The position numbers were made by a program, and so were the translations under genes. 64,000 bases of DNA from an uncultured bacterium. Its GTDB lineage: Bacteria > Patescibacteriota > Minisyncoccia > Phycocordibacterales > GWA1-40-21. Under the pieces are notes generated by a model, which saw only the letters and a program-made list of their open reading frames with translations, did no database searches and was not told where the DNA came from. Positions 10,274-31,090 of the stretch are shown here, piece by piece (the first letter of the stretch is position 1; every line of letters begins with the position of its first letter). The DNA lies in NCBI GenBank assembly GCA_963840885.1, contig CAWJAN010000001.1, forward strand, positions 115,051-179,050, read 5' to 3'.

Positions 10274-10277
10274 TTTG

Positions 10278-10348: not shown

Positions 10349-10372
10349 ATCGCGAATAAATATAACACAAAT

Positions 10373-10398: not shown

Positions 10399-10409
10399 AT
10401 TTGTGAATT

Positions 10410-13081: not shown

Positions 13082-13426
13082 TTAAGGGAGAGTTGGCAAA
13101 GTTACGGAAGAATTGCCGGTGCCAAACGTATTTACGAGTATTGCTACAAGTCCCCAGACAGAAACCATGACGAAGATTCCCACGATACCCCAGATCATCT
13201 GACCTTTGGCTTTCGACTTCTTTTCATCGCTGTCGGCAATGACAAATACGAAAACTTGCCATATGAAATAAACGACGGCAACCGCAATAAGAACAGGAAG
13301 AATAAGGTTTGCCAGCTGGTGGACATAATTGATGAGTCCGACTACTCCCTGGGTAGGCGTATATTGCGCAAGAGCCACTAAAGGCAAGAAGCTCGATACG
13401 GCCACTGCTGATATCTTTTTTAACAT
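13082..13426 (-). CDS. TrbC/VirB2-pilin-like small secreted membrane protein, paralog 2
   Basis: Signal peptide MLKKISAVAVSSFLPLVALA, then TM1, loop DSDEKKSKAKGQ, and TM2 MIWGIVGIFVMVSVWGLV. The internal ATG at 13424-13426 is the preferred start. Confidence 0.6.
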   Translation of the reverse strand: MLKKISAVAVSSFLPLVALAQYTPTQGVVGLINYVHQLANLILPVLIAVAVVYFIWQVFVFVIADSDEKKSKAKGQMIWGIVGIFVMVSVWGLVAILVNTFGTGNSSVTLPTLP

Positions 13427-13537
13427 AAACTGATTGTTTTTAAATAAACTATTAAATTTTAAAGCGACCAAAATTACGACTTTACATAATTATAAACTGA
13501 CTTATATAAGAGGGCAAGTCTCGTTATCTACACAAAA

Positions 13538-13945
13538 CTAAGGGGTTGGGACATTAACAGGCCTTATCTGTATCTGGGTATCATTGAGCCTGAAAGTATA
13601 TTGGAGAATATTCACGAGCCCCCATACGGAAACCATGACGAAAAGGCCTATGATTCCGTAGATTATGAAATCCTTGGCTTTCTTTTTATTGTCACCTTCG
13701 GCTCTTATGAAAGTGAAAACTCCCCAAAGAAAAGCCAGCACCGCTACAGCCATAAGAACTGGAACAAGAGGATTTATTATGCATCCTATAAACATATTCA
13801 TTACAAGTTCCTTGAAATTTCTCGGGGCCAAGCTGCAGGTAAAACCAGTGAGCGACAAATTGCTCTGGGCATATGAAGAGCCGTAAAACATTCCGAATAC
13901 GAGTGGAGAAACGGATATTGCAAAAATTTTAGCTCTTTTTTTCAT
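13538..13945 (-). CDS. TrbC/VirB2-pilin-like small secreted membrane protein, paralog 3
   Basis: Signal peptide MKKRAKIFAISVSPLVFGMFYGSSYA, then TM1, loop EGDNKKKAKD, and TM2 FIIYGIIGLFVMVSVWGLV. Confidence 0.6.
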   Translation of the reverse strand: MKKRAKIFAISVSPLVFGMFYGSSYAQSNLSLTGFTCSLAPRNFKELVMNMFIGCIINPLVPVLMAVAVLAFLWGVFTFIRAEGDNKKKAKDFIIYGIIGLFVMVSVWGLVNILQYTFRLNDTQIQIRPVNVPTP

Positions 13946-13950
13946 AAAAA

Positions 13951-14292
13951 TTATTGTCCAACTGACTTAATGGTTCCAACAACAAGTGACGCCAGAAGCT
14001 GTGCTCCGAGAAGTATTGCAACGCCTATTACTGTATAAAAGAAGAGTTCTTTTGCTTTCTGAATTTCAGCCGGTTTACCCTGTGCGCGTACGAATACAAA
14101 GCCAGACCAAATAAAGGCAACAATCGCTACAACTACTCCTACTCTTGTAATATAAGTAAGGACTATAGAGACAAGATTTGGAACATTTGTAGTACCTAAA
14201 GGATTTACTATCTGAGCGAAAGAAACAAATGGCATAGCAAGCTGAACAAGAGTTAGACCGCCTATTTTTTTAAACTGTAATATTTTTTTCAT
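13951..14292 (-). CDS. TrbC/VirB2-pilin-like small secreted membrane protein, paralog 4
   Basis: Signal peptide MKKILQFKKIGGLTLVQLAMPFVSFA, then two TM segments separated by the QGKPAEIQKAKE loop. The start is set at the internal ATG at 14290-14292 to avoid overlap with paralog 5. Confidence 0.55.
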   Translation of the reverse strand: MKKILQFKKIGGLTLVQLAMPFVSFAQIVNPLGTTNVPNLVSIVLTYITRVGVVVAIVAFIWSGFVFVRAQGKPAEIQKAKELFFYTVIGVAILLGAQLLASLVVGTIKSVGQ

Positions 14293-14312
14293 ATTTTTAT
14301 TTTTAATAAATT

Positions 14313-14702
14313 TTATTGACCGCCCAAGAATCTGAGCGCCGAGCCGGCATTCGGAACTATCCACTTGATAACCGTATAAACCGCAAGCCAAGAACAAAGG
14401 ACTATAATCATTCCTATAATGGTATTTTTGAACATATTTTTGGCTGCAGTTCTTTCTCCAGGGTTATTAGGATGCAAAAGCATTTTTCCTCCGGCTATTG
14501 CAAATGTAACAGCCGCAACTGAAATTGAAATGCCTAAAAAATATTTTAAGATATTATTTATCAGCTGTATGAAACTGTTGAAATTGCAATCCTGACCATT
14601 ACAAGGAATCACTCCTCCGCTTGATTGCGCGTAAGCCAAAAGCGGCAGAAAAACAAGCGAAGATACGGAGAATGCCAGGATTTTAGAAATATTTCTTTTC
14701 AT
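14313..14702 (-). CDS. TrbC/VirB2-pilin-like small secreted membrane protein, paralog 5 (Cys-containing)
   Basis: Signal peptide MKRNISKILAFSVSSLVFLPLLAYA, a CNGQDC motif, then TM1, loop NPGERTAAKNMFKN, and TM2 TIIGMIIVLCSWLAV. Confidence 0.55.
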   Translation of the reverse strand: MKRNISKILAFSVSSLVFLPLLAYAQSSGGVIPCNGQDCNFNSFIQLINNILKYFLGISISVAAVTFAIAGGKMLLHPNNPGERTAAKNMFKNTIIGMIIVLCSWLAVYTVIKWIVPNAGSALRFLGGQ

Positions 14703-16639: not shown

Positions 16640-18109
16640 CTATTTTTTATTTTTCCACTTCTCTATCTCTTTGACTTCTTTTCTGATATATAGTTCTGCG
16701 TCTTCTAAATCATTCTTGAGCTCATTGTTGATTTCTTCTTCCTCCTCGGTCAGCTCTCTTCTGTTTTTGACTTTTTCCAGCTTTCTGATCTGCTCCACTA
16801 CACTTTCTTTAAGCAGATCAAAAGCCTTATGAATCGCATCCTCCGCTTCATCGACTTTTTTGTCTATCAGGAAGAATCTGCGCCATGCATACCATAGCAA
16901 AAGTATCAGAAGTATAATCAAGGAAAGAAGAGGAATGAATATGTCCAAGAAGCTTATGGCCCAGTTTCCTATTATGATTATAGCTGGAGGCCTGACGCTT
17001 ATGCTTATTTCCTTGCTTGACGAGCTTACCGCGCCGCGGCTATCGGTTATCTCTGCCCATATCGTATATGTGCCGTCTTTTAATCCTTCAGTCGATACTA
17101 CCGTGAAATTGCCGCTTGAATCTACACTCGAAATATATTTCCTGATATATCCGCTTGAGTCTTTCAGATAAAGATCCGCTTCGGAATTAAAATATTTCGT
17201 TGTTCCGGACACCGACAAGATGTCGTCTGTTTTTAGGTTTATAGGATAATTGGTTATTATAGGGGCTTCAAGCGATTGCACGAAGAACTGTGCGGAATTT
17301 ATCAGGATATTTCCAAGCTTGCTTACAGCTTTTACCAAAAGAGTATGATTGCCGGCTTCTTGTATCGGAGTCTTATAAATATGGCTGCCGTCGTCATTCC
17401 AGATTTCACTGCTATTATTGTCTATCTGGATTTCGTAATGATCTACGGAATAAGTGCTGTCGGATACGGAAAGCTTGAAGCTTGCCACTGGATCCGTAAG
17501 ATCAGTTCTTTTTATTTCAGTTATATTTAAAACGGCTTGCCCCGTAGACGGAGTAGGCGTCGGCTGATTTTTTACATCCAAAATTGTATATGATGCCTGG
17601 CCGGTGCCCGTAGTTATATCGGTGCCGGAACCGTCGGCTGCAAGGACCGATCCTGAGGTAAAAGACAAGTTTGCCGTCCCGGGTGCCAAAGCCTTAAACG
17701 TAATCGATATTATATTTCCCGAGGAACCTTGGTACCATGGCGGCAAAACTACGCCTTCAAAACTTATTGTGCCTTCAATATTAGAAGAAGCCGGTTCTTG
17801 CGCCCAAAAACCGAATATTGAGCTGCTTTTTGAAATAGAAGAAACTGAAATCAGGTTTGCAGGAAAAGAAATGATTCCTGAAGCGGCATTCATGACTTTG
17901 TCAGCGCTCGAAACCAATACATTTACGGTAAAATAAGAGCCTTTGGTATATGTGCCTGAATTCGGAGACAGCAAGAGCGTAGCCGCCGAAGCTTTAAAGG
18001 CATTTGGAATAAAAAAGGCCGTGATAATGGATAGCAGAAAAAATGTTTTAATAAAAATATCATTAAAACGGCTACAGGAATTTTTTATGTTTGGCTTAAA
18101 CGTTCCCAT
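16640..18109 (-). CDS. cohesin-like domain surface protein with C-terminal TM anchor and coiled coil
   Basis: Signal peptide, then a beta-sandwich segment reading LLLSPNSGTYTKGSYFTVNVLVSS...ISFPANLISV...ISITFKALAPGTANLSFTSGSVLAADGSG, a cohesin-type pattern. A C-terminal TM helix and a charged coiled coil follow. The ATG overlaps the stop of the upstream gene (TAATG). Confidence 0.5.
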   Translation of the reverse strand: MGTFKPNIKNSCSRFNDIFIKTFFLLSIITAFFIPNAFKASAATLLLSPNSGTYTKGSYFTVNVLVSSADKVMNAASGIISFPANLISVSSISKSSSIFGFWAQEPASSNIEGTISFEGVVLPPWYQGSSGNIISITFKALAPGTANLSFTSGSVLAADGSGTDITTGTGQASYTILDVKNQPTPTPSTGQAVLNITEIKRTDLTDPVASFKLSVSDSTYSVDHYEIQIDNNSSEIWNDDGSHIYKTPIQEAGNHTLLVKAVSKLGNILINSAQFFVQSLEAPIITNYPINLKTDDILSVSGTTKYFNSEADLYLKDSSGYIRKYISSVDSSGNFTVVSTEGLKDGTYTIWAEITDSRGAVSSSSKEISISVRPPAIIIIGNWAISFLDIFIPLLSLIILLILLLWYAWRRFFLIDKKVDEAEDAIHKAFDLLKESVVEQIRKLEKVKNRRELTEEEEEINNELKNDLEDAELYIRKEVKEIEKWKNKK

Positions 18110-18993
18110 TATTTTTTATTCTTCCTTCTTTGAAATATGAAATATGCGCAAGCAACTGAAATTACCATTATAATTATAAACCAGACTTCTATATTTTCAT
18201 ACCAAGGCAACGGATTTTGTGGGGATAATTTTTCAATCCTGGTATTTCCTTTCTTATCGATGGCTTTAACGTAAATATAGCTCCTTAAATCCTGATCGGC
18301 CAATACGTACGGGCTTGTTGCAGGAACCCATTTTGAAAAATCAAATATAAAGTACCTGGATTCCTTTACCTCATATCCTGCTATACCAGAACCTTTGTCT
18401 TCGGCCGCAAAAGATAAAAACCATTTGCCGTCAAAAATATTCGGATCACGTGATATCTCCGGCTTGAAAGCTTCCGGGGGCTCGTTATCGGCAATATTAA
18501 GAGATGGTGAGCTTGTAGGAATGACGGAACTTGAAATATTCAAATTCAGGTCGGATGTCTTTATTTTATCCGCAGTACCGTTGCCATCATTCAGCAAAGC
18601 GCTTGCATTTGTAATTTTTATCGGAGCGCTTCCCTCTTTCTTCGTTTTAAATATAAGAGACAGTACAAAACCTTTATCCAAAATGAATCCGCCTGGAGTT
18701 ATCCCGGAGAAAACTATTTCTCCGTTAAGGAGTGCCGGCTGGTCCACCCAGAAATTTACAACGGAATTACCTATTCTTATTTCTGACAGATCCAATAAGT
18801 TCGCAGGAAAATATATCTTTCCGCTTACTGCATTTATATTCTCCTTTTCCGTATTTATGTTCAGATCAACCTCAAATTCCTGCCCTATAGATAAGCTTTT
18901 GCTTGCGGTATCAAAAGAAAATTCAGAACCGAATGCCGATTTCGGGCAAAAAATCACTAAAAATAATAAGGTTATATAAAATTTATTTTTCAT
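18109..18993 (-). CDS. cohesin-like domain surface protein with C-terminal TM anchor
   Basis: Signal peptide, then LSIGQEFEVDLNINTEKENINAVSGKIYFPANLLDL...LSLIFKTKKEGSAPIKITNASALLNDGNGT, which parallels the neighbouring cohesin-like gene. The C-terminus is VWFIIIMVISVACAYFIFQRRKNKK. Confidence 0.5.
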   Translation of the reverse strand: MKNKFYITLLFLVIFCPKSAFGSEFSFDTASKSLSIGQEFEVDLNINTEKENINAVSGKIYFPANLLDLSEIRIGNSVVNFWVDQPALLNGEIVFSGITPGGFILDKGFVLSLIFKTKKEGSAPIKITNASALLNDGNGTADKIKTSDLNLNISSSVIPTSSPSLNIADNEPPEAFKPEISRDPNIFDGKWFLSFAAEDKGSGIAGYEVKESRYFIFDFSKWVPATSPYVLADQDLRSYIYVKAIDKKGNTRIEKLSPQNPLPWYENIEVWFIIIMVISVACAYFIFQRRKNKK

Positions 18994-19050
18994 CTTGTGA
19001 TAATTGTTTTCATTTTAATTTTATGGTTCTCCTGGATTTTTAGATTTGCC

Positions 19051-20385
19051 TTATCCGGTCCAATAATATGCCATTATGGAAAAGTCTACGAGATCGATCT
19101 TTCCGTCTCCGTTCAGTTCTGTTTTTTCTATCTTACTGAAAGCATCGCTTAAAGTATTTTTATACCAATACGATCCTATGGAAAAATCTACGAGATTTAC
19201 TTTACAATCCCCGTTTAAATCTCCCTTTATGGGACATTTTATGACGGGCAATGCGGCGACATTCTGGTCTCCGACCAAAAATGATACGGTCTGGCTGAAA
19301 TCGGATATCGATTGATCTGATGCCGAAGCTTTTGATTTTGTCATGTGCGTTCCCAGATCGACTTGCGAAGTGTCGAAATTATAAAGATATATTCCATTTT
19401 TATCTGAAGATGTGGTGGCAAAAATCTCTTGCGGAGAATGAACGGATATTATTATATTCGCATCATCGGCAGATTGCCCGAAAATCGCTATATTGTCCCC
19501 TTGTTTCACTTCGCTTTTATCCACGGCTATTGTTGGAGCTATAAAAATTCCGCTGACATTTGTGGTTGCTCCGTAAGTAACGCTTACCGGAAATGTCAGG
19601 CTTGTTGACCTGTTTCCCTGATAATCTTCCGAATAGACGCTGAAGAAATAATTCCCTCCTGAAATTCCGTTCAATGTTATTTGGAAATTGGAATCCGTGC
19701 CGGCAACAGTAGAAGCCGCAACTTGCGCATCCTTCAGCAAAGTTACTGTGCTTTGAGGATAGGCTCTTCCAGAAAATACAACTGATGTTGCGCCGCCTCC
19801 TCCGCCTCCTCCTCCGCCCCCGCCTCCTCCGCCTGCAGGCGGCGGCGCAGCAGGCGTGGAAGAAACTTGCGTTGATGTAGCTATTATATTTCCGAATGCG
19901 TCTTCGACTCTTATTACAAAATAATACGCCGTTCCGTTCGATAATCCGGTCTTTACATAAGAAAGGACGTTTCCCAAAGATGGGCCGAAAGTATAGGGGC
20001 CTCCGGATAGGGTGGAAACGCCTACGTCATAACCGGATGCTGTCCAGCCTAAAATGCCTGTGGCTGATGTCCACAACAAAGTTACTTGGGAATCGCCAGC
20101 TGTTGCCGATACTGCAGGAGTGCTTACAAAAGGAAAATATAAAAATCCCGAGTTTATTTTAAAATCCGTGGCGGTACTCGTGCCTATTCCGATTTGTCCT
20201 AGAGTGCTTATAAGGGTATAGCTTGTCGACGAAGAGAGTCCGCCGCCGTTTGATTCCACTGGATCCAGTATTTTATAATCGACGGAGGAATATTCCGCTG
20301 CGAAAAGATTTCTGCCTGTAAAAATAGCGGCAAACAAAAAAAATAATATTGCCGACAGCCTTATTTTTTTGTGCAACTTGTTCAT
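19051..20385 (-). CDS. secreted FN3/Ig-like protein with poly-Gly tract and C-terminal type I dockerin
   Basis: Signal peptide present. An FN3-like segment reads YDVGVSTLSGGPY...GTAYYFVIRVEDAFGN. There is a run of 14 Gly. The C-terminus carries duplicated calcium-binding dockerin segments DLNGDCKVNLVDFSI and LNGDGKIDLVDFSIMAYYW. Confidence 0.6.
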   Translation of the reverse strand: MNKLHKKIRLSAILFFLFAAIFTGRNLFAAEYSSVDYKILDPVESNGGGLSSSTSYTLISTLGQIGIGTSTATDFKINSGFLYFPFVSTPAVSATAGDSQVTLLWTSATGILGWTASGYDVGVSTLSGGPYTFGPSLGNVLSYVKTGLSNGTAYYFVIRVEDAFGNIIATSTQVSSTPAAPPPAGGGGGGGGGGGGGGATSVVFSGRAYPQSTVTLLKDAQVAASTVAGTDSNFQITLNGISGGNYFFSVYSEDYQGNRSTSLTFPVSVTYGATTNVSGIFIAPTIAVDKSEVKQGDNIAIFGQSADDANIIISVHSPQEIFATTSSDKNGIYLYNFDTSQVDLGTHMTKSKASASDQSISDFSQTVSFLVGDQNVAALPVIKCPIKGDLNGDCKVNLVDFSIGSYWYKNTLSDAFSKIEKTELNGDGKIDLVDFSIMAYYWTG

Positions 20386-20410
20386 ATCCTTAAAAATCTG
20401 CCGCGAAAAA

Positions 20411-20824
20411 TTAATTGCCCTTTGGTGTTGCAGCTGTTGCCGTAGTGGTGGAAATTTCGCTTGTATCTATAGGAGCTATTTCAACCACTTTATCTTCGCT
20501 TGGGTCAAATAATATGGCCTTCTGGGCTTTTATATAAATGAGTATCTTGTCGCCGACTTTAGCATTCTCGAAAAACGGCTGGCCTTTGAGCGCATTCGTA
20601 TCGGTTACTGTGGCTATGGTAGGAGTTTCATCTGTAGGCAAAACAACGAGCTTGCTAACCGATGATACTAGCTGATTTATCTCATTCTGTGCGGCCTGGT
20701 CAGATGTTTTTGGAACTTGCGCAAGCTTGATACATAAGAAGACTATAACTGCGAGCGATAAGAAAAACAGAAACCAAGGAATCATTATCTGATATTTGCT
20801 TTTGAGTTTTATTTGAGGGAACAT
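20411..20824 (-). CDS. small N-terminally anchored membrane protein, unknown function
   Basis: Single N-terminal TM (IMIPWFLFFLSLAVIVFLCI) with an extracytoplasmic tail. Confidence 0.4.
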   Translation of the reverse strand: MFPQIKLKSKYQIMIPWFLFFLSLAVIVFLCIKLAQVPKTSDQAAQNEINQLVSSVSKLVVLPTDETPTIATVTDTNALKGQPFFENAKVGDKILIYIKAQKAILFDPSEDKVVEIAPIDTSEISTTTATAATPKGN

Positions 20825-20867: not shown

Positions 20868-23800
20868 TTAAAAGACTGCGGTAAATACCTTTTTTATAAA
20901 ATCCCAAATATAATCCGTGAACTGGCCTGAGATGGCGGCTGTCGCCAGCATAAATATACTGTCTCCTTTTATAAGGCCTACATCTCCGCCTCCTCCTCCC
21001 TCATTTTGAGTCGTTGTCGATGTGGTAGTGGCTGTTGATGATGATTGCTCCGTGCCTGAACCTCCTCCAAAATTTCCGCCGGACTGAGAGCCGTTCGGCG
21101 CATTGCCTGATTCTACATTTGAGCCGCCTCTCGGCTTGATAATAACTGGGGCAGCAACAGAAATCTGCGGCTGTACCGTATATGTGAATTTAGACGCATC
21201 GCCGGCATTTGTCACCCTGAAGCAATAATTTGATCCAGTTACGACATTGCTTGTGGAGCGTACCGAATACTCGAGCTCGGTAAACTGGCTATTGGTTAAT
21301 GTTATTGCGGGAGTCTGATTGCTTGAAGTCTTAACATAACCTGGCACGAATGTCTTATTTGCCGGATCGGCAATGCCTGCGGAATCAGTTGTCAGAGAAT
21401 TATCGGCTACATTGCTCGACCAATCCATTGTCCATGGACCGGTAGAAGTTGAAGATGGCACGGCAGTCCAGGTAGAGCAGGAATCGCTTGGCGATGCGTA
21501 TTCCAGGCGGTACTGATAATTTGTGGCCGTATTGCTCCCTGTATTTGAAATCTGCACTCTCAATCTATCGCGGTCTCCTATTACAACGCCGGACGTCAAA
21601 GCCGTGTTTGTAGCGGCGGCATAGCTTGCATTTACTTCATTGCTATCATCTAATCTCCAGCGGTAATTCAGCTGCGTCAGAGCTGCAGTTCCGTTGCCCC
21701 AGCTGACTTCCCAATCATTAAGGTTTGGCGTACCGCCTCCGAGATCTGAAAGCGTAGCTTTAAGATATAGCGTTGCATTATTTCCTGTAGTCGAGATATC
21801 CGAAAGGTCTATAGAGCATGAGCTTGCGCCATTTTGTATAGTGCAGGTTTTTCCGCTTATGGCAGATTGCGTCGAATCAAGAACCTGTACAATGATGTTC
21901 GAATTAAGAGTAGTCGTGGCATCAACTGCAACTCCACCCCATGATGCAACGCCTGGAACAAAATTAAATTTTATTGCCGGAGAAATTATCGTTCCCTGAG
22001 ATCCTGCGGCTGCAGTCGAAGTCGGAGCCGAAGCGCCGTTTAATCCTACACCGAAAACATCAAAGCTTGCACCAGTTCCATCATTGTGAAAATCAAATAT
22101 TCCTATCCATCCGGCAGCGGTAATGAGACTTGATGTGGCTGTTAAATCCCATGTTGCAGGTTCAGGATTGGAATCCAGCCATGTTTTATAGCTAAAATTA
22201 GTTCCTTCAAAACTGGCTCTTGCATCATACCAAGTATTTGTTGACGGTGTGAATAAAGATGAAGAAAGAGTGGTAAATGAGTTAGAACTAAAGTAACCGA
22301 TTTGTTCTCCGTTTGATGGCTGATTAAAACCTGATCTTAGCGTGGTAATAGCTCCTGACGTAGCTCCACTGGCTCGATCAAGAACATCGGCATCATCATT
22401 TGTTGACGGAACCTTATATCTGAAAAATATCTCGGCATCAGGAGAAACATTATCCAATAAATTCCAAGATAAAGCTCTTCTCAAACTTGAATTTGCTCCG
22501 CCTACCTGAAGAACTTTGCTTCCAGTTGCTGTGACATCACTTTGCACAAGCCAAGAAGAAGTGGCTTCGCTATCGTATCGTTTTGTCCAATCGCTCGGCG
22601 CGCTTCCTGTAGCATATCCGGAAAAATCCGTGAAATATGTCGAGACGGTATGAGAACCCAATATTAAAGATTCTGATCCCGTAGCCATCAGAGTTTGCGG
22701 ATCGGAAATGCTGTTATAAAATGTTGCCGGCGAATTCTGGTCGTTATATTCCGTGGCAATCCAGCCCGAAGAAAGGGCGGTATTAGAAATCTGGACTTCG
22801 TCCAGCAAGCCGCTGTTAAAAAAGCTGCTTCCTCCTCGCGACATAAGATATACCGGAACATTGCCGAAGTTATTGGTATTGTCGGTATTTGTAGGATACG
22901 AAGTTGGCGTTTGTAGCGTTCCGTCTATATACAATGCTACTTCATTGACAGCTTGGCTCTTATCAAACACTGCAACATACTGGTGCCAAGCTCCTGCACT
23001 CGGCCTCGTATAGCATGCTTGGTTATATCCGACATCTCCTAATATAGAAATCTGAACATATCCTGAACACGGAGCGGAGCTATTCGGATCAATGAAATAA
23101 CCGGTTGTATAAAGATTGGAGTTAGTCGTTCCCTCTATAGCCATCTGATCTCCGGTTCCAAACGAACTCTGATTCAACCAAAGCGAAACAGTTATGGCAT
23201 TCGTCGCGCTAGAATCTACGGCTGGTGCAGAAACGGAATTGCTTGTTCCATTGAAATTCAAGCTTCCATCAATCTTTCCGGGGACTTGGGCACTGGAAAG
23301 CATGGATCCGATAGATGTTCCGTTGTTAGCGTTTGAGGTGCTGTCCTTCATCTGAGGAGCAACCCCGGCAGGATTTTCTTCCAAATGCCATACTGCCCTA
23401 TAATTTGAGTTCCAAGTGCTGGTGCTATTTTCTTGGTCAGGAGCGGTGCTCGAGCCGTAGTACATATATATCTGGGTATCAGCAGATGACGAAAGAGACG
23501 GAATATTGACCCAGGCATTAAGGGCTCCGGTACTGCTTGAATATGATTCTCGCTGGTATGGAAGAGTGGTGGTGCCGTTTGATGATGTGAAAACTATGTC
23601 ATTGCCGCTTGACTCTGCGTGAGAAGCGAGATCTGAATCGGTCAAACTGATAAGGGCTGGAAAATTCGCATACGAAGCGCTGTTGCTGCTCACTTTCGTA
23701 TGATCGATAGTGATAAGCTTTCGGTATGGAAAACTCGTATTGTACCAATTAGTTGATGAAACGGCGGACGAACCAGTGGCTTGCGTGCTGCTCAAAGTTC

Positions 23801-26800
23801 CGGTATTGAATTGCGCGCTTGATGTCTGGAACCAATCAGGATTTCCTGTAGGAGATGATGAGGCATATGTGAATGTCCAAGTCCCTGATGACCAGCTCCC
23901 ATAAGTGCCTCCTCCGTCATTAGAAGCTCTTGCGCGGACATAATATGTTTCCCCATCCGTTGTAGACAGAGCAGGCGAAAGGCTTGCGGCTGAAAGATTA
24001 TAAGCGGTGCCTGAAGTATATGTTCCTGAAAAAGTTTCCCTGTGAGCCGTTCCGGTGAAATCAGATACGTCATTGAGTTCAATCTGAAAACTGTTGGAGC
24101 TTATGGAACTTGTGGCTGATACTCTGAAAATCGGCGTGGTCGTAGCCTGCCTTATATTATTGAAAGCGATTTGGTTTGAACCTCCATCATCATTATAAAA
24201 CACAGGGGCATTAGGAGCTGTCACAGTCTTATAAGCAACTGTCCAGTCATTAAGAGTGGCTCCGGATGTGATGGAAGCTTTCAAGCAAATGGTTGAATAA
24301 GTCGAGGTGCTGAGCCCGGAAAGATTTATTGGGCTGCTTGCAAAACCCGTGCTGTTTCCCGAGAGATCGCCGTCTGGAATTATTGTGCTGCAGCTAGCTC
24401 CATAATAGACCTGCATGGATACGGTTCCTGAAGTTGCGGTTTTTGACCATGATGCAGAATCCCAGCTCGTCGCGCCTGGTACGAAACTATAATTTATCGG
24501 GGATGACATAATGGAACCAGAACTGGAAGGATTAATTAAAACGGTTGCAGCATCGGGAGAGGTTGCTGAACCAGAAAGGGTCCAAGTATTTGATATGCCG
24601 GTCGATGTATCGGTCGTTAAAGCATTTCGTGAAGCTGCATAAGTTGCGTGATACTGCGGCCTTGCTGTTTGGTCTTCAGTCCAGCCTCCGCTGACGCTGC
24701 TGAGTGTCAGACCGCCGGCTGAGCCATCATCTGTTTCCATGCTCGACAAAGCCAAGGTGCCGATGACGCTTGGAGTAACCGTCGGTGAAGTTTGCGTGCC
24801 AGTATTTGAACTGCTTTGGTTTATGGGAGTAACCGAATTTTCACCTTGAATTTCATACAATACGCCAGACTGCCATTCAACTGTCCCGCTAATCGGAAAG
24901 GTATATCCTGTCCCGTCTCCTCCTTGAACTATTTTCCACCAAACAGTAAGCTGTGCGGTGCCGTTTGTTTGATCTTGAATCTTAGTCCAGGTTCCATCCG
25001 GAGCCGATGTGGTTCTGTCCAGCGAATAATCGGAATTTCCGACAAACGCGACCAAAAGATCTCCGACAGCCGGCTGCAAACTTAATGTAAACGGAACTGA
25101 TGTCCCTGTTACAGCTGGTTCCCATTTTGTACTCTGGACTATTCCTAATGTCTGGCTGCTTGATACTCCGACTGAACCAGAACCTGTTGTTGTTGCAGAA
25201 GATAAAGTTCCTGTATTAAACTGCGCATCCGTAGTCTGAAACCATGCCGGACTGCCGCTTGATTCATAAGTGAAAGATTGCGTCGATGTCGACCAGTTGG
25301 AATAATTTGATCCGTCTGCCGATGCCCTTGCCCTTACATAATATGTGATTCCGTTTGTCGTAGGCAAGCTTGGCGACAAGCTTGACGCCAATAAATTGTA
25401 TACCGTGCCTGAAGCGTATGTGCTTGAAAAAGTCTGGGAATATGTAGTTCCGCTGAAATTAGTGGTGGTGCTGAGCTGTAATTGGAAATTCGTGAAATTC
25501 GTAGGGCTTGTAGCCGAAACCCTGAACAAAGGAGTGGTCGTGCTTTGTATTATATTGTTGAATGCGATTTGGTTTGTTCCGTCACTGTTTGAAAAAGTCG
25601 GGGTGTTTGGTTTTATAATGGCAGAAGAATAAGTTACCGTCCAATCGTTAAGAGTGGCTCCGGATGTGATGGAAGCTTTCAAGCAAATGGTTGAATAAGT
25701 CGAGGTGCTGAGCCCGGAAAGATTTATTGGGCTGCTTGCAAAACCCGTGCTGTTTCCCGAGAGATCGCCGTCTGGAATTATTGTGCTGCAGCTAGCTCCA
25801 TAATAGACTTGCATGGATACGGTTCCTGAAGTTTCTGTTTCCGACCATGTAGCCTGGCTCCATATTACCGAGCCGGGAACGAAACTGAAATTTATCGGGG
25901 ATGACATTATCGTTCCGGTTGAAGATGTGGAATATGGATATTTGACTATTACGATTCCTGAGCCTCCGGCGCCTCCGGTGTCGCTTGATCCGGAACCATT
26001 TTGTCCAGCTCCTCCTCCTCCGCCTCCTGTATTAACAGTTCCCGCTGTTCCGCTTTGGCCGGTATTGCCTCCGGCTCCTCCTCCGCCAGCTCCTCCTGCT
26101 CCGGCATTTCCAGTTCCTGTGCCCAAATGCTGAAGTCCTCCGCCTCCGCCTCCGCCATAAGTAACAGAAGAACCTGAAATAGAAGTTGTGTAGCCGTCTC
26201 CGCCTTTTCCTGCCTGAGTGGCAACTCCATTAGCACCAACTTGCGTTGCTCCTCCTCCGCCTCCGGCGGCAAAAGTTCCGTTCGTTCCGTCTCCGCTGTC
26301 ATAGCCGTTTCCTCCGGAATTTCCTTGCCCTGCCGTTCCGGCTTTACCGGAATCACCGGCATTGTGATATCCTCCTCCGCCGGAACCGCCGGCAGTCGCA
26401 GTTGAACCTTGTTGTCCGCCTCTGCCTCCGCCTATAGCCGTCAATGTTCCAAAAACAGAATTGCTGCCGGCAGTATTTGCCGCTCCTCCGCCTCCTATAG
26501 TAACCGTGTATGACTGCGGAGTTACCGCGTAAGAAGAATTATAAATGACTCCTCCGGCTCCTCCTCCGCCTCCGGTTCTGTCGGGATCATTTCCTCCTCC
26601 GCCTCCGCCGGCAACAACCAGCGCCTCGATATTTCCTGAACCGGATGTGACTTGGAATGTTCCGCTTGAAGTAAAAGAATGATAGCGATAGCCGCCTGTT
26701 GTGGTTATCGTGCCTCCGGTAGCGCTCATGAGAGGAAGCAAAATCACCTGATCGGAGCTTGCGACTGTTCCGGTTAATGTATCCGTATTGAATTGGGCAT

Positions 26801-28052
26801 TAGCTGTCTGAAACCATGCCGGACTGCCGGATGATTCGTAAGTAAAAGTCTGGGTCGATGTAGACCAGCTGCCGTAAGTCGTTCCCCCGTCGGCTGAAGC
26901 GCGGGCACGTACGTAATAGGTCGCGCCATTCGTTGTCGGAAGGCTCGGCGAAAGGCTTGTTGCGGAAAGATTGTATACGGTGCCGGATGCATAGCTACTC
27001 GAATACGTTTCCGTATAAGCGGTGCCGCTGAAATCCGATGCGGTGTTCATCTCGATCTGGAAGCGGTTGAAAGCAGCCGAACTCGTAGCCGATACCCGGA
27101 AGATCGGCGTGGTCGTGCTTTGCATTATATTATTGAAAGCTATCTGGTTGGTGCCATCGGAATCGGAAAAAGATGGTGAGCCAGGAGGAGAAAGCCGGCT
27201 GATTACTATGCCTGTCTGAGATTTTAAACATGTTCCGCTCCATGTTGTTCCTCCGTCTTCTGTTGTATTTGAAGATGATGTTGCGAAAACTCCGACCGCA
27301 TATCTCCATGCAGCGCTTGTGCCTGATGCACCGGTAACTTGAGTTACTGCAGATGTCCAATTTGTTCCGATGCTACTGATGGTTCTCGCCGTACCGCTTC
27401 CGGTTCTTAATCCGTTTGTTATTTTAATGGCTAAATTTCCGGCGTTTACATTAAGATTCGGACTAAAAACTATTGGGCTTGTGCCTGTTGTTGTAAGCTG
27501 GTTAACGTTTTGCGAATCAGCGATTGGGTTTGATGTATCGACTCCGCTGTATACCGCTTTAAATACGCTCGTATAGTAGTCGGTTCCGCCGCTCATAGAA
27601 ATTGCCAAAGTTTTTGCGGTGCCATCCATGACCGCATTATCGGTCAGATAATATATATATGTATGCTGTTGTGCAGAAGATCCGGCGTCCCCCGCGGCAA
27701 GTGTCATTGCAACTCCTCCGTAAGTAACACTTGTCATTGTTTGCGTTCCGGCTGTCGATCTTGATGATGCTATTGCCACTACCAAAAGCCTGTTCGAACT
27801 TGTCGTCGATACAGCAAAAGATGCGGCTGTTGCTCCAGGATATGCAGTGGCTCCATAAACAGAAGCCCAGGCATCAAGCGTTGCCACTTCCGCGTTTGCA
27901 TAATTCGGACTTGCAGGGAAATTCAACAAGCTCAAAAAACCCTGTCCGGAAAAGCCGATCGGATATTGGAATACCCAGCTGAAAATCAAAACAAAAATAA
28001 AAGCCGATTTAAACGTTTTCCTTATTATTTTGTTTATGAGTTTAAGCTTCAT
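20868..28052 (-). CDS. giant secreted surface protein (2394 aa) with repeated FN3/Ig-like modules, Gly-rich region and a LamG/ConA-like lectin domain
   Basis: A single uninterrupted 7.2-kb ORF with an N-terminal signal peptide. A module of about 130 aa (SDGTNQIAFNNI.QSTTTP.FRVSATS...YYVRARAS.DG..YS.WS..TQ.FTYESSGSPAWFQT..AQFNTGTL) is present three times. A 60-aa block is exactly duplicated. An internal region of about 230 aa is extremely Gly-rich. The LamG-like segment reads NFNGTSNSVSAP...ITVSLWLNQSS...ALYIDGTLQ. Confidence 0.75.
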   Translation of the reverse strand: MKLKLINKIIRKTFKSAFIFVLIFSWVFQYPIGFSGQGFLSLLNFPASPNYANAEVATLDAWASVYGATAYPGATAASFAVSTTSSNRLLVVAIASSRSTAGTQTMTSVTYGGVAMTLAAGDAGSSAQQHTYIYYLTDNAVMDGTAKTLAISMSGGTDYYTSVFKAVYSGVDTSNPIADSQNVNQLTTTGTSPIVFSPNLNVNAGNLAIKITNGLRTGSGTARTISSIGTNWTSAVTQVTGASGTSAAWRYAVGVFATSSSNTTEDGGTTWSGTCLKSQTGIVISRLSPPGSPSFSDSDGTNQIAFNNIMQSTTTPIFRVSATSSAAFNRFQIEMNTASDFSGTAYTETYSSSYASGTVYNLSATSLSPSLPTTNGATYYVRARASADGGTTYGSWSTSTQTFTYESSGSPAWFQTANAQFNTDTLTGTVASSDQVILLPLMSATGGTITTTGGYRYHSFTSSGTFQVTSGSGNIEALVVAGGGGGGNDPDRTGGGGGAGGVIYNSSYAVTPQSYTVTIGGGGAANTAGSNSVFGTLTAIGGGRGGQQGSTATAGGSGGGGYHNAGDSGKAGTAGQGNSGGNGYDSGDGTNGTFAAGGGGGATQVGANGVATQAGKGGDGYTTSISGSSVTYGGGGGGGLQHLGTGTGNAGAGGAGGGGAGGNTGQSGTAGTVNTGGGGGGAGQNGSGSSDTGGAGGSGIVIVKYPYSTSSTGTIMSSPINFSFVPGSVIWSQATWSETETSGTVSMQVYYGASCSTIIPDGDLSGNSTGFASSPINLSGLSTSTYSTICLKASITSGATLNDWTVTYSSAIIKPNTPTFSNSDGTNQIAFNNIIQSTTTPLFRVSATSPTNFTNFQLQLSTTTNFSGTTYSQTFSSTYASGTVYNLLASSLSPSLPTTNGITYYVRARASADGSNYSNWSTSTQSFTYESSGSPAWFQTTDAQFNTGTLSSATTTGSGSVGVSSSQTLGIVQSTKWEPAVTGTSVPFTLSLQPAVGDLLVAFVGNSDYSLDRTTSAPDGTWTKIQDQTNGTAQLTVWWKIVQGGDGTGYTFPISGTVEWQSGVLYEIQGENSVTPINQSSSNTGTQTSPTVTPSVIGTLALSSMETDDGSAGGLTLSSVSGGWTEDQTARPQYHATYAASRNALTTDTSTGISNTWTLSGSATSPDAATVLINPSSSGSIMSSPINYSFVPGATSWDSASWSKTATSGTVSMQVYYGASCSTIIPDGDLSGNSTGFASSPINLSGLSTSTYSTICLKASITSGATLNDWTVAYKTVTAPNAPVFYNDDGGSNQIAFNNIRQATTTPIFRVSATSSISSNSFQIELNDVSDFTGTAHRETFSGTYTSGTAYNLSAASLSPALSTTDGETYYVRARASNDGGGTYGSWSSGTWTFTYASSSPTGNPDWFQTSSAQFNTGTLSSTQATGSSAVSSTNWYNTSFPYRKLITIDHTKVSSNSASYANFPALISLTDSDLASHAESSGNDIVFTSSNGTTTLPYQRESYSSSTGALNAWVNIPSLSSSADTQIYMYYGSSTAPDQENSTSTWNSNYRAVWHLEENPAGVAPQMKDSTSNANNGTSIGSMLSSAQVPGKIDGSLNFNGTSNSVSAPAVDSSATNAITVSLWLNQSSFGTGDQMAIEGTTNSNLYTTGYFIDPNSSAPCSGYVQISILGDVGYNQACYTRPSAGAWHQYVAVFDKSQAVNEVALYIDGTLQTPTSYPTNTDNTNNFGNVPVYLMSRGGSSFFNSGLLDEVQISNTALSSGWIATEYNDQNSPATFYNSISDPQTLMATGSESLILGSHTVSTYFTDFSGYATGSAPSDWTKRYDSEATSSWLVQSDVTATGSKVLQVGGANSSLRRALSWNLLDNVSPDAEIFFRYKVPSTNDDADVLDRASGATSGAITTLRSGFNQPSNGEQIGYFSSNSFTTLSSSLFTPSTNTWYDARASFEGTNFSYKTWLDSNPEPATWDLTATSSLITAAGWIGIFDFHNDGTGASFDVFGVGLNGASAPTSTAAAGSQGTIISPAIKFNFVPGVASWGGVAVDATTTLNSNIIVQVLDSTQSAISGKTCTIQNGASSCSIDLSDISTTGNNATLYLKATLSDLGGGTPNLNDWEVSWGNGTAALTQLNYRWRLDDSNEVNASYAAATNTALTSGVVIGDRDRLRVQISNTGSNTATNYQYRLEYASPSDSCSTWTAVPSSTSTGPWTMDWSSNVADNSLTTDSAGIADPANKTFVPGYVKTSSNQTPAITLTNSQFTELEYSVRSTSNVVTGSNYCFRVTNAGDASKFTYTVQPQISVAAPVIIKPRGGSNVESGNAPNGSQSGGNFGGGSGTEQSSSTATTTSTTTQNEGGGGGDVGLIKGDSIFMLATAAISGQFTDYIWDFIKKVFTAVF

Positions 28053-28093: not shown

Positions 28094-31090
28094 TTATTTG
28101 CTTATAAATAACGGCGACAGGCTTGATCCGACTGCATTTATAACGTTCACATATCCGTCAAATACCCTATTGACCGGAGAAACCAGCCATATAACTGAAT
28201 CACCAAAAGCTATAACATGCTGTTCTAATTTAAGCCCGACATCGCCTCCTCCGCCTCCGTTTGAAGGCGGAGTGGTTGTTGAAACTGTCGTCGTTGCGGT
28301 TGATGAAGACTGCTCTGTGCCGCTTCCGCCGTTTTCGTTTCCTCCGGACTTGCCTGAATTTGCCGCCGCTGAAGACTCGACATTTTTTCCTCCCCTGTTT
28401 TTGACAACCGGCGCGACAACGGACACTTCCGGCAAATTGCCGTATACAAAATTTGACGAGTCGCCGGCGTTCGTTACCCTGAAGCAATAGGCCGATGATG
28501 TATCGATATTTGATATGGAATATATAGAATATTCAAGCTCTGTAAACTGAGAAGTTGTCAGGCTCATTGCCGTCGTCTGGTCTTCCTGCGTCTTTACATA
28601 TCCAGGAACAAAAGTTTTTCCGGCTGGATCAGTAATTTTGGAAGAATTTGTCGTAGAAGTATTATTACCTACCTTTGATATGCTCATGGCCCATGGCCCC
28701 ATCGTATTGTCGAAAGCCGGCACCGGATACCAGCTCGTGCATGAGTCATCGCTTGAAGCGTATTCAAGGCGGTATTGATAATTTGAAGCTATGCCCGTGC
28801 CGGTATTTGAAACCTGAATCCTGAGTCTCAATTGATCTCCCATATTTACTCCGGAAGTCAGCGGCGCATTTACCGAAGCATAGCTTTCGCTGTTTTGATT
28901 CGGATCATTCGTCCTCCAGCCGTAATTGTCTGTCTGAGTTATCTGCGCGGTTCCGCTAGCATTTCGCCAGCTTACAGACCAGTCATTTAATGATGGAGAT
29001 GTTGTGCCTGTGCCGTTTAGAGTAGCTTTTAGGCATATACTATTATATGTGGTGGTGCTTAATCCTGATAAATCTAGGGGGCTCGTTGATGAAGAAAATC
29101 CTGCGCTGTTTCCGGAAAGCGCGCTGTCCGGAATAATCGTATCGCAAGGAGCCGTGCTTGAATAATAGACTTGGACTGAAGTAGATCCGTATGTCTCATC
29201 TGCCGACCAAGATGCCTGATTCCAAGAAATCATTCCTGGAACGTAATTGAAATTAACCGGCGGAGAGATGATCGAGCCTGTATCGGTGGCTGCGGAAATC
29301 GGCGCTGAACCTCCGCCTACATTTACGCCGAAAGCGCCGAAGCTCGTTCCGGTTGCCGCGGAAATTGAGCTCATGAGCCCTATCCATCCTGCGCTTGTGG
29401 TCGCGCTTGAAGTAGATTGAATATCCCAAGATGAAGGCTCATTGTCAGCCGCAAGCCAAGTCTTATATTTAAAATAATTTCCTGAAAAACTTGCGCGCGC
29501 TTTATACCATCTATTAGCCGAAGGGCTGAATGAAGAACTGGCATTTACAGCAGAACTACCTGAATCATAATATCCTATATCTTCCGTGCTTGATGAAGAA
29601 TCATATCCTCCTATAACTCCCGTTGCGCTTACGTAACTCGTTCCCGAAGCCCTTGCCACGGCAAAAGCGTCGGTATTTGTCGCCGGGACTTTATAAATAA
29701 AAAATATATTCGCGTCTCCGGAAACGCCGTCTAGGACATTCCATGATAAAAGATTGAATGGGCTTGTCGTCGATTCTGAACGCAGAACCTTTCCTCCCGC
29801 TGCTGTCGCATCGTCCCGTATAAACCAGTCATTCGCGCTTGCAGACCACTTTTCCGTCCAATCACTTGGCTTTGAGCCTGTGGCATACCCTGAAAAATCA
29901 GTAAAATATATCTTGCTTGTATCCAAAAGGTCTGCTGTTCCGGAACTTGTCGTTTCAATGCTGCCGGACAAAGATCCGGTATTGAATTGCGGTCCCGTAG
30001 TCTCGAACCAGTCCGGATTGCCTCCTGTTTTATAAGTGAAAGATTGCGTAGCTGCAGACCAGGAAGAATAATTCGTTCCGCCGTCTGATGAAGCGCGCGC
30101 TCGGACATAGTAAGTTGCGCCATCTGTGGCAGGCAAGCTTGGCGACAATGCGGCTGCCAATAAATTGTATTTTGTTCCCGAGGCATACGCTCCTGAAAAA
30201 GTCTCCGTATACGATGTGCTGCTGAAATCGGATACGGAATTCAATTCCAATTGGAAAGCATCAAAAGAAGACGAAGAGACGGCAGATACGATAAAATCAG
30301 GAGTGGTAGTGCTCTCTCGTATATTGTTGAAAGAAATTTGGTTTGTTCCGTCGCTGTCCGAAAAGATCGGAGCGGACGGAGGGATTGCCAATGGCTTGAT
30401 AGCTATAGTAAATGCTTCCGGGCTGTCTATCGTTCCGGAAGTCGTAAAAGTCCCCGGATCATCAGAAGAGGCGGTCAATGAACGATTGGCAGTTGAAACT
30501 CGCGAGCGAGAAGTCGCTCCAGATCCGTTCTCCGCTATCGTAATCAAATTGGAATAATTTGCAGGAGCTGCGGTTACTGAAGAGTTAGAAATGCGGTTTG
30601 TCATGCCGGCAATCCAAAGAGTATCTGCAGTTCCCCAAGACGGAGAAAGAGCCGGCGGATCATTTGTTGTGGATGTGGCTATTTCTGGTGTTCCGGTCCA
30701 TCCGCTTATGCGGTATCCGATGGCGGCAACACGGATATTTGTGGATGTTATGGCAACTGTCGCTCCTTCCGATCCGCTTGCCGTTTTATACCATATATAT
30801 GTATGGCCAAGAGTTGTTGAGTCTATGGAACTAAGCAAAGACCATCCGCTAGGCGTTGATGCGGTTGCAGTTGATCCTCCCCTAAAAACAAGCATGAGCA
30901 GATCGCCAGCCTGGATGCCGGAAGGCAAGGTGACATTGTTCGATGTCGCGGCGCTACTGTTTTGATATGTGCTCGTAGCTGCAATTGCAGGATAACCTGC
31001 TGCTAATGCATTGGCGTGAATATTGAATATTCCCAAAATAATAAAAACAAATATTGATTTTAAAAATAGCTTTTCCAAGTGATTGTTCAT
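28094..31090 (-). CDS. large secreted surface protein (998 aa), paralogous to the 2394-aa protein
   Basis: Signal peptide MNNHLEKLFLKSIFVFIILGIFNIHANA. It shares the FN3-like AQFNTG module, the YFTDFSGYATGS.PSDWT jelly-roll-like domain, and a C-terminal S/T/G tail ending GGGGGDVGL plus a hydrophobic segment, all with the 2394-aa protein. Confidence 0.75.
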   Translation of the reverse strand: MNNHLEKLFLKSIFVFIILGIFNIHANALAAGYPAIAATSTYQNSSAATSNNVTLPSGIQAGDLLMLVFRGGSTATASTPSGWSLLSSIDSTTLGHTYIWYKTASGSEGATVAITSTNIRVAAIGYRISGWTGTPEIATSTTNDPPALSPSWGTADTLWIAGMTNRISNSSVTAAPANYSNLITIAENGSGATSRSRVSTANRSLTASSDDPGTFTTSGTIDSPEAFTIAIKPLAIPPSAPIFSDSDGTNQISFNNIRESTTTPDFIVSAVSSSSFDAFQLELNSVSDFSSTSYTETFSGAYASGTKYNLLAAALSPSLPATDGATYYVRARASSDGGTNYSSWSAATQSFTYKTGGNPDWFETTGPQFNTGSLSGSIETTSSGTADLLDTSKIYFTDFSGYATGSKPSDWTEKWSASANDWFIRDDATAAGGKVLRSESTTSPFNLLSWNVLDGVSGDANIFFIYKVPATNTDAFAVARASGTSYVSATGVIGGYDSSSSTEDIGYYDSGSSAVNASSSFSPSANRWYKARASFSGNYFKYKTWLAADNEPSSWDIQSTSSATTSAGWIGLMSSISAATGTSFGAFGVNVGGGSAPISAATDTGSIISPPVNFNYVPGMISWNQASWSADETYGSTSVQVYYSSTAPCDTIIPDSALSGNSAGFSSSTSPLDLSGLSTTTYNSICLKATLNGTGTTSPSLNDWSVSWRNASGTAQITQTDNYGWRTNDPNQNSESYASVNAPLTSGVNMGDQLRLRIQVSNTGTGIASNYQYRLEYASSDDSCTSWYPVPAFDNTMGPWAMSISKVGNNTSTTNSSKITDPAGKTFVPGYVKTQEDQTTAMSLTTSQFTELEYSIYSISNIDTSSAYCFRVTNAGDSSNFVYGNLPEVSVVAPVVKNRGGKNVESSAAANSGKSGGNENGGSGTEQSSSTATTTVSTTTPPSNGGGGGDVGLKLEQHVIAFGDSVIWLVSPVNRVFDGYVNVINAVGSSLSPLFISK

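Follow-up and report, generated by a model that had tools for sequence, protein, structure and literature searches.

Three giant genes and a shared C-terminal cassette

We analyzed a 64,000-nucleotide stretch of DNA from an uncultured Patescibacteria genome (contig CAWJAN010000001.1; this whole stretch is hereafter the window), focusing on a C-terminal element that is shared by two giant proteins encoded there. Downstream of gyrA lie three adjacent giant genes, p3, p2 and p1, all on the minus strand (Table 1). An initial annotation had described nearly the same arrangement at the ends of the 2394 amino acid (aa) protein p1 and the 998 aa protein p2, and both translations contained it: RGG(S/K)NVES, a short spacer, GGSGTEQ, the Ser/Thr run SSSTATTT(V)STTT, 3–5 further residues, GGGGGDVGL and a tail. 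We refer to this whole arrangement as the cassette, to GGGGGDVGL (G5-DVGL) as the motif, and to the part that precedes the motif as the linker. The C-terminus of p1 consists of RGGSNVESGNAPNGSQSGGNFGGGSGTEQSSSTATTTSTTTQNEGGGGGDVGL plus 34 aa, and that of p2 consists of RGGKNVESSAAANSGKSGGNENGGSGTEQSSSTATTTVSTTTPPSNGGGGGDVGL plus 45 aa. The coordinates given in the initial annotation covered each copy from the motif onward, but the whole cassettes proved to be longer (Table 1). Gly-acid units of the form GGx(G/N)x(D/E) occur three times in the cassette, spaced 13–24 residues apart. A six-frame scan found G5-DVGL at the ends of p1 and p2 and nowhere else in the window, and the C-terminus of p3 contained no cassette.

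Table 1. Positions of the giant genes, the cassette parts and neighboring features in the window, and of the tail-less homologues in their own loci.
Feature	Positions	Strand	Remarks
p1	20868-28052	minus	2394 aa, putatively secreted giant protein; N-terminal hydrophobic signal segment, Gly_rich_2, DUF2341, repeated beta domains, C-terminal cassette
p1 terminal beta-sandwich domain (YRWRxDD...YCFRVTNAG)	21156-21671	minus	modeled with pLDDT 80-95
p1 whole cassette	20868-21131	minus	
p1 Gly-acid unit 1, RGGSNVES	21108-21131	minus	start of predicted disordered linker
p1 Gly-acid unit 2, GGGSGTEQ	21045-21068	minus	
p1 Ser/Thr-rich run, SSSTATTTSTTT	21009-21044	minus	also kept in P0011, P0017-P0019
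p1 core motif, GGGGGDVGL	20973-20999	minus	third Gly-acid unit, best conserved of the three
p1 34-aa tail	20871-20972	minus	last 16-18 residues are a predicted amphipathic helix, QFTDYIWDFIKKVFTAVF
p2	28094-31090	minus	998 aa, putatively secreted paralogue of p1
p2 terminal beta-sandwich domain	28418-28927	minus	
p2 whole cassette	28094-28396	minus	
p2 Gly-acid unit 1	28373-28396	minus	
p2 Gly-acid unit 2	28310-28333	minus	
p2 Ser/Thr run	28265-28309	minus	
p2 core motif, GGGGGDVGL	28232-28258	minus	
p2 45-aa tail	28097-28231	minus	
p3	31118-40282	minus	3054 aa
137-aa bitopic membrane protein	20411-20824	minus	directly downstream of p1; LytR_C in some relatives
Dockerin-like 444-aa protein and two cohesin-like proteins	16640-20385	minus	weak Pfam matches
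Tail-less homologue, locus L004	about 1612-1848		
Tail-less homologue, locus L008	about 10194-10430		
Tail-less homologue, locus L010	about 5664-5912		

The N-terminal segments of p1 and p2 were strongly hydrophobic and signal-like, with 19-residue Kyte-Doolittle means (KD19) of 1.7–2.1 after a basic start; throughout, we used a KD19 of 1.6 as the threshold for a transmembrane (TM) helix. The short homologues P0002, P0003 and P0012 start with MKK...ALGARNVFA|FE. Judged by this hydropathy, with no SignalP-type predictor, p1 and p2 are probably Sec-exported and would have their C-termini outside the cell. Pfam assigned only Gly_rich_2 and DUF2341 to p1 and p2, both distant from the tail. The Gly_rich_2 match (PF21722, E = 3e-17) spans p1 residues 461–705 (window about 25940–26670), and the same family is assigned to P0019/L002 in precomputed Pfam annotation; GGGGxAGG-rich blocks were seen, by eye only, in unrelated-looking giant proteins of L006 and L061.

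The paralogous block of p1 and p2 is colinear over the C-terminal 547 aa, with 52% identity. Its most conserved part was the linker and motif (p1 residues 2318–2362), where aa identity reached 77%, and its least conserved part was the last ~30 residues, with 27%. Third-codon-position identity at identical residues was 0.35–0.39 in the linker and motif, similar to the rest of the block. Because synonymous sites are thus saturated, the duplication must be old and there is no sign of gene conversion; we ruled out recent gene conversion as the cause of the identity between the tails, and the possibility, raised in the initial annotation, that recent duplication alone produced the shared tail fails for the same reason. 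That 77% of the residues remained identical despite saturated synonymous sites indicated purifying selection on both linker and motif.

Distribution and modularity of the cassette

Immediately before the cassette, both proteins carry a beta-sandwich domain of ~170 aa (YRWRNDDGsE ... FTELEYSI ... YCFRVTNAG) that belongs to no Pfam or NCBIfam family. Using the C-terminal 270 aa of p1 as query, we retrieved eight proteins, all with this same terminal domain, and six of the eight had a Gly-rich linker ending in GGGGD(V/I)G(F/Y) or GGGSG(L/V)EA, followed by a tail of 30–45 aa. A profile of the tail only matched 13 cluster representatives at E<=1e-3 among 1.84 billion representative proteins. These included P0001, P0007 and P0011–P0019, and some of the hits were large, at 1354, 1440 and 2055 aa. 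The E-values of p1 and p2 in this search (4e-25 and 2e-22) confirmed that their tails resemble each other beyond chance, and the cassette recurred outside the two proteins across many Patescibacteria lineages. Counting related loci, we found ~25 examples, all in Patescibacteria. Cassettes were present in the GTDB loci L003 (2303 aa), L005, L006 (2219 aa, Kaiserbacteria), L007, L009, L070 and L073, and the metagenome-assembled genomes (MAGs) that bear them are labelled Paceibacterota, Kaiserbacteria, Ryanbacteria and ‘Saccharibacteria’. Each locus held only one or two cassette genes.

The invariant or near-invariant columns of the tail alignment (A2) were G47–G50, D51 and G53. Variants of the motif follow the form G5-D-(V/I/L/S/T)-G-(L/F/Y/I), and in all complete members the motif lies 25–72 aa from the end of the protein.

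Several other searches yielded nothing usable. NCBIfam had no match at E<=1 to whole p1 and p2 or to isolated 100-aa tails, and we found no LPXTG or PEP-CTERM motif, as the initial annotation had stated. A scan of GTDB with a tail pattern (A3) gave 600 pattern matches of which tblastn confirmed none, probably owing to low-complexity masking, and a word-indexed protein search with the tail profile gave 2 matches only, with Gly-rich words swamping the index. The DNA pattern (S/T)TPxxGGGGGDV matched JGI metagenome contigs 11 times, always by chance, and searches of PDB sequences with the tail profile and with a small 137-aa protein encoded next to p1 found nothing significant.

The beta-sandwich domain itself is widespread in Patescibacteria, and what follows it varies widely. 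In GTDB species genomes, 83 of 112 matches to the domain pattern were confirmed by tblastn, and we kept the best 80 of the 83 as loci. Nearly all were titled as Patescibacteria-group MAGs; the few titled ‘uncultured Gammaproteobacteria’, ‘uncultured Pseudomonadales’ or WOR-3 are cited here by title only. A Foldseek search of the terminal domain against the PDB returned only generic Ig/CBM-like beta-sandwiches, at E-values of 3.6e-3 or worse. The architectures seen among loci L003–L082 included tandem copies of the domain, giants with a length of about 4000 aa, and proteins of ~440 aa that end in ...YTATANP. The idea that these ...YTATANP C-terminal domains are WxL-like received no support from Pfam and was dropped.

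The cassette is confined to the closest subset of the proteins that carry the beta-sandwich domain, and the architectures upstream differ greatly among its carriers. In nearly all cases the preceding domain is this same unannotated beta-sandwich. In two loci (L083, L084), however, TTTSTTTPPxGGGGGDV and a tail stand behind an FN3-like domain in a different protein family. The linker also tolerates insertions: an F5/8-type-C domain is inserted in it in L007, and a Cys-containing insert is found in P0002, P0003 and P0012, with the motif and tail retained in every case. From these insertions, the second preceding domain and the existence of homologues that stop at the motif, we concluded that the motif plus tail is an independent unit.

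Two further groups of homologues bear on what the end of the protein does. The first lacks the tail: in L004, L008 and L010 the reading frame closes right on the motif (...GGGGGSE*, ...GGGGDSG* and ...GGGDGGLE*) and none of the frames encodes a tail, and P0004 is probably of the same kind. The second comes from Gracilibacteria. There, in L076 and L080, an S/T linker again comes after the beta-sandwich domain, the motif behind it is degenerate (GGDSGSL or GNVGLL), and a PG_binding_1 domain stands farther along the protein (E = 2e-15 and 2e-13). Between the degenerate motif and PG_binding_1 lies the sequence NxxNGYAFAP, which P0017 also contains and which is similar to LKNGNAFVFA in P0001. If the distal part were cleaved off, a folded wall-binding domain in this place would be difficult to explain; its presence suggests instead that this end of the protein encodes envelope attachment.

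These data also bear on whether the cassette does anything specific. Paralogues and orthologues might simply have inherited it along with the neighboring beta-sandwich domain, as a linker of low complexity with a remnant at its end. This would fit the near-constancy of the preceding domain, the tiny size of the family in so large a protein set, the poor conservation of the tail proper and its loss from some homologues, and the chance-only yield of the JGI scan. Low-complexity linkers normally drift fast, however, yet the linker and motif are the best conserved part of two old paralogues with saturated synonymous sites; moreover, even distant lineages show no variation in the Gly, Asp and Gly columns, and motif and tail were kept around inserted domains and behind a second, unrelated domain. 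The evidence of selection and modularity weakens this explanation, and we regard it as quite unlikely. We concluded that the cassette is real, selected and reusable, and not a by-product of recent duplication.

Properties of the linker and tail, and candidate functions

The C-terminal 270 aa of p1 were modeled with AlphaFold2 from an alignment of 10 sequences. The model contained a confident beta-sandwich (model residues 1–178; predicted local distance difference test, pLDDT, 80–95), a region including the motif that was predicted to be disordered (residues 180–257, pLDDT <50), and a terminal helix of low confidence (residues 254–269). The initial annotation had spoken of about 25 hydrophobic residues after the motif, and this description did not hold. 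Each of the two tails contains six charged residues (D, E, K or R), and the best KD19 values were 1.29 for p1 (1.05 for the post-motif residues alone) and 1.33 for p2, under the TM threshold. The true membrane anchors of the window reached 2.46 and 2.97 (C-terminal anchors of two cohesin-like proteins) and 2.69 (N-terminal anchor of the 137-aa protein). Of the 22 tails compared, two (P0012 and L009) attained TM-level hydrophobicity, and the number of charged residues per tail ranged from 2 to 15. The tails of P0017–P0019 are 64–72 aa long, showing that the post-motif segment can be that long and hydrophilic.

Over the terminal 18 residues, the hydrophobic moment (muH) was 0.54–0.73 in p1, p2, P0001 and P0011 (z = 2.4–3.7 versus shuffles). 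Values of muH and mean hydrophobicity (<H>) were 0.55 and 0.31 for p1, 0.73 and 0.16 for P0001, and 0.64 and 0.20 for P0011, compared with 0.43 and 0.44 for the experimentally established amphipathic membrane anchor of the E. coli penicillin-binding protein PBP5 and 0.07 and 0.93 for a true TM anchor of the window. A predicted helix of the PBP5 type, in which the terminal ~18 residues combine a high moment with moderate hydrophobicity, was clear in the p1-like subgroup only. The tails were net basic (K/R 10.7% versus D/E 4.3%), and K or R occurred among the last three residues in 13 of 18 tails against an expectation of 29% (binomial P about 2e-4, ignoring relatedness). The terminal K/R was mostly a single residue; p1 ends in ...TAVF and has none.

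We interpret the cassette, tentatively, as a modular, uncleaved and non-covalent tether that would hold Sec-exported surface proteins to the Patescibacteria cell envelope, and we put the probability of this reading at roughly 0.45. The 70–80-residue disordered Gly/Ser/Thr linker, with its three GGx(G/N)x(D/E) units and Thr-rich run, would serve as a flexible stalk across the wall zone, and the Thr-rich run is a candidate site of O-glycosylation. The selected G5-D-V-G-(L/F/Y) element and the few residues after it may act as a specific hinge or recognition element. Beyond it the giant protein would be held at the cell surface, much as a C-terminal amphipathic helix holds PBP5. Read from the sequence, the overall layout (Sec signal, functional domains, disordered stalk, then motif and basic amphipathic end) is that of a surface protein with a putative wall-spanning stalk and a terminal retention element. 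We also counted in favor of a tether that the position after the motif carries a known wall-binding module, PG_binding_1, in L076 and L080. The selection on linker and motif, the recurrence and modularity of the cassette, the predicted disorder and terminal helix, the amphipathic and net basic tails and the signal-like N-termini speak for it as well.

The closest system by predicted mechanism is E. coli PBP5/DacA, which has an amphipathic C-terminal membrane anchor (PMC2909392); we verified its sequence in PDB 6ntz_A. Like PBP5, the cassette proteins are predicted to be Sec-exported and to attach to the cytoplasmic membrane from outside through an amphipathic helix formed by their last ~18 residues, and the residue style of PBP5 and P0001 is similar (NFFGKIIDYIKLMF versus NNFFDFIKNLFSKIF). 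This likeness is an analogy with no detectable homology, and the cassette is not a member of the PBP5 type: PBP5 has neither a long Gly/Thr stalk nor G5DVG. The order of a stalk and then a retention module also recalls the non-covalent wall-binding modules of monoderm surface proteins (PG_binding_1, LysM, SLH and WxL), which occupy the same position. Unlike those proteins, p1 and p2 contain no such folded domain, and Pfam found no PG_binding_1 (PF01471) in them.

Several observations weigh against a tether. The post-motif tail is poorly conserved, and it is the Gly-rich motif, not obviously needed by an in-plane anchor, that is conserved. The tail is dispensable in the homologues that stop at the motif. 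The predicted terminal helix has a pLDDT of only about 50, and amphipathicity is clear in the p1-like subgroup only, with z near 0 in the other tails. Finally, a frequent terminal K/R would be expected equally of a cleaved tripartite signal.

The last point leads to the sorting-type explanation, under which G5-DVG-(L/F/Y) would be read by a membrane enzyme that removes the weakly hydrophobic tail with its basic end and perhaps links the protein to the wall or to a lipid, in parallel with LPXTG/sortase, PGF-CTERM/archaeosortase or GlyGly-CTERM/rhombosortase. Two features of the motif and linker speak for it, namely a conserved Gly-rich motif 25–72 residues from the C-terminus and a Thr-rich linker before it, as in PGF-CTERM proteins. 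So do the enrichment of terminal K/R (13 of 18 tails), the TM-like hydrophobicity of the P0012 and L009 tails, the occurrence of the cassette behind two different domains, and the natural variants that end at the motif and resemble a processed product. In architecture the nearest known system is GlyGly-CTERM/rhombosortase (TIGR03501), whose defining elements are a motif rich in Gly and Ser, a hydrophobic region and basic residues (PMC3237569, PMC6219818). As in GlyGly-CTERM, the cassette stands at the C-terminus of secreted proteins bearing signal peptides, has a Gly/Ser-rich, Cys-free signature, and includes a stretch of higher hydrophobicity that often has a basic end.

The cassette nevertheless is not a member of the GlyGly-CTERM family. 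GlyGly-CTERM has a Leu-rich, true TM helix with only 0–5 residues beyond it, is found on up to 13 otherwise unrelated paralogues per genome, and has a dedicated, co-distributed rhomboid protease. In contrast, the cassette lacks a TM helix in 20 of 22 tails, has an Asp inside the motif and tails of 25–72 aa, is not matched by the hidden Markov model (HMM), comes with no rhomboid in the regions scanned, and occurs in monoderm Patescibacteria. Its two carriers in 64 kb are homologous over the colinear 547 aa, not in the tail alone; across metagenomes the cassette stands behind two different domains. The systems PGF-CTERM/archaeosortase A and LPXTG/sortase A share with the cassette a Thr- or Pro/Gly-rich stalk before the motif (glycosylated in PGF-CTERM proteins) and the order of motif, hydrophobic stretch and basic residues. 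Unlike either system, the cassette contains neither PGF nor LPXTG and lacks a TM helix, the regions scanned yielded no sortase or archaeosortase, and some homologues have a folded domain after the motif. Among the marks of a tripartite signal we found a short motif near the C-terminus and signal-like N-terminal segments, but no curated HMM match and, in 20 of 22 tails, no TM helix after the motif.

Further points disfavor cleavage. Tails with as many as 15 charged residues, tails of 64–72 aa (P0017–P0019) and PG_binding_1 after the motif (L076, L080) all fit poorly with a discarded anchor, no NCBIfam sorting-signal model matched at E<=1, and loci contained one or two cassette genes only. We therefore consider a new sorting signal unlikely. 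It is likewise doubtful that the cassette marks a Patescibacteria-specific sorting or attachment system that, with cleavage at the Gly run, fixes giant adhesin-like proteins to the epibiont envelope; what would set such a signal apart is that an amphipathic segment of marginal hydrophobicity, not a TM helix, serves for retention. The initial annotation had likened the element to sortase, exosortase and archaeosortase substrates. That analogy is undermined by the rarity of TM helices, by the Gracilibacteria homologues with PG_binding_1, by the homologues that end at the motif, and by the want of an HMM match and of a processing enzyme in our searches. Its broader wording, an anchoring signal, was reasonable for a conserved, selected and modular C-terminal element of surface proteins that bear signal peptides.

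We also compared the cassette with RTX repeats because the GGSGTE and GGGGGD units fit the GGxGx(D/E) form of the RTX GGxGxD nonapeptides. Unlike RTX repeats, the units are 13–24 residues apart in a region predicted to be disordered and are not tandem nonamers, so that no beta-roll can form. In addition, p1 and p2 are probable Sec substrates and not substrates of type I secretion.

Gene neighborhood and significance

Pfam scans of about 50 open reading frames (ORFs) in the window detected no sortase, rhomboid, CPBP or exosortase-like protein. The ORFs encoded surface proteins, four pilin-like proteins of the type IV secretion system (T4SS), signal peptidase I and housekeeping proteins (DprA, TopA, RelA/SpoT, ParB, MiaA, MurJ, GyrA, Pth, HisS, YbeY, FtsA, FtsZ and TsaD). 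Gene calls in the 7 kb upstream of the window on its 247.9-kb contig were all housekeeping, with no processing enzyme among them. We then considered shared neighbors by clustering all ORFs of 82 related loci and the window and scanning nine of the families that were most recurrent in gene orientation. None of the nine was a protease or transpeptidase family; they comprised cohesin-like and CARDB-like membrane proteins, a beta-lactamase-like protein, a methyltransferase and several unknowns. The neighbors of P0011 and P0019 included no such enzyme and had nothing relevant in common, and a regular-expression search for the TLxTC sortase signature hit no plausible ORF. Within the regions and families covered, these results count against a sorting signal. 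The initial annotation had taken a motif limited to two paralogues, together with the lack of a candidate enzyme, as pointing to simple duplication; the motif extends well beyond two paralogues, and a processing enzyme was not found in the regions and families scanned. The only unannotated polytopic membrane protein that we noticed in the window is 201 aa long (9152–9757, minus strand), with about six hydrophobic segments by eye; it had no Pfam match at E<=5 and is neither implicated nor excluded as a membrane enzyme.

The 137-aa membrane protein downstream of p1 deserved attention since its homologues also lie directly downstream of the cassette gene in L004–L007. Its family contains at least 117 clusters across Patescibacteria, some of them annotated LytR_C. 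In L096 and L097 the family is represented in the same surface cluster, there with no cassette gene, and in L098 and L099 its surroundings are unrelated. We rejected this protein as a tail-specific partner or enzyme, given that it lacks His, that its alignment reveals no candidate catalytic triad that is conserved, and that it is widespread and occurs without cassette genes. It is a member of the surrounding surface-protein gene cluster and not a tail-specific partner.

Also part of this cluster are two cohesin-like proteins, each with a genuine TM anchor at its C-terminus, and a 444-aa protein that combines a signal peptide with Ig and dockerin-like domains; Pfam scored the cohesin and dockerin matches under the gathering thresholds. 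Homologues of this trio were present in 49 of the 83 clustered sources (82 loci plus the window). The cluster (window 16640–20824) lies 2–4 kb downstream of the genes with the YRWRNDDG...YCFRVTNAG domain, and was seen in L003, L009, L016, L024, L036, L046, L052, L053, L055, L056, L096, L097 and others.

This neighborhood raises the possibility that G5DVG(L/F/Y)xxxNxF is a docking peptide that substitutes for a dockerin and binds a protein of the surface cluster, with the cohesin-like membrane-anchored proteins or the small LytR_C-like membrane protein as candidate partners. The conserved association of cassette genes with the dockerin-like and two cohesin-like TM-anchored proteins is in keeping with docking, as is the small membrane protein directly downstream in the window and in L004–L007; furthermore, the best conserved part of the cassette is a short linear motif in a disordered region, which is typical of peptide-domain recognition. 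However, the small protein is widespread and occurs apart from the cassette, L004 retains it although its cassette is tail-less, P0019 and P0011 have no adjacent cluster genes, and the cohesin and dockerin matches are subthreshold. Docking thus seems to us rather improbable.

Other features of the window were recorded in passing. The p3 gene contains near-perfect long tandem DNA repeats at 34515–39154, with periods of 360 (4.4 copies, 99% identity), 477 (2.3 copies, 98%) and 159 (2.1 copies, 100%), which encode STTSAA(S/A)TYLTIANATATYPTFTY... units; GC skew is strongly positive over 34–40 kb (+0.24 to +0.40). Recent expansion, or collapse or expansion in the assembly, is possible. Giant proteins similar to p3 in L096 (38–5917) and L097 (73–5475) carry Peptidase_S74 and Bact_surface_Ig-like domains in precomputed Pfam annotation. 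Peptidase_S74 is an intramolecular-chaperone auto-processing domain of the phage tail-spike type. The p3 protein of the window shares the homologous region (about residues 2257–2690) and the Ig-like domain, but at E<=0.01 Pfam detected no S74 domain in p3.

Four tandem small membrane proteins of 129–148 aa (13082–14702, minus strand) all matched T4SS_pilin (PF18895, E = 4e-12 to 5e-8), and some also matched TrbC/VirB2, forming a paralogous array of conjugation-type pilins. Such pilins have reportedly been described for the T4SS of Patescibacteria. Lastly, a low-GC stretch at 55474–60016 (0.32–0.37 at 56–60 kb versus about 0.42 elsewhere) adjoins a tRNA-Ser/tRNA-Glu pair and holds DUF4145, a truncated DUF4238 ORF and a 384-aa ORF of no family; it may be an integrated or defense-related islet.

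On present evidence the cassette looks more like a tether than a new sorting system, that is, a C-terminal surface-retention cassette that is rare, restricted to Patescibacteria and previously unannotated. Patescibacteria live attached to other microbes, and host recognition is a role for which their giant surface proteins are prime candidates. To our knowledge, how these proteins are retained on the cell is largely unknown. If the cassette is merely a passive stalk and anchor, it is a useful annotation and no surprise. A cassette that can be defined by an HMM nonetheless offers a handle for finding such proteins in metagenomes, for localization work in the few cultivated lineages and for enzyme profiling, and the analysis also exposes an unannotated beta-sandwich domain and a surface-protein gene cluster that are widespread in the phylum.

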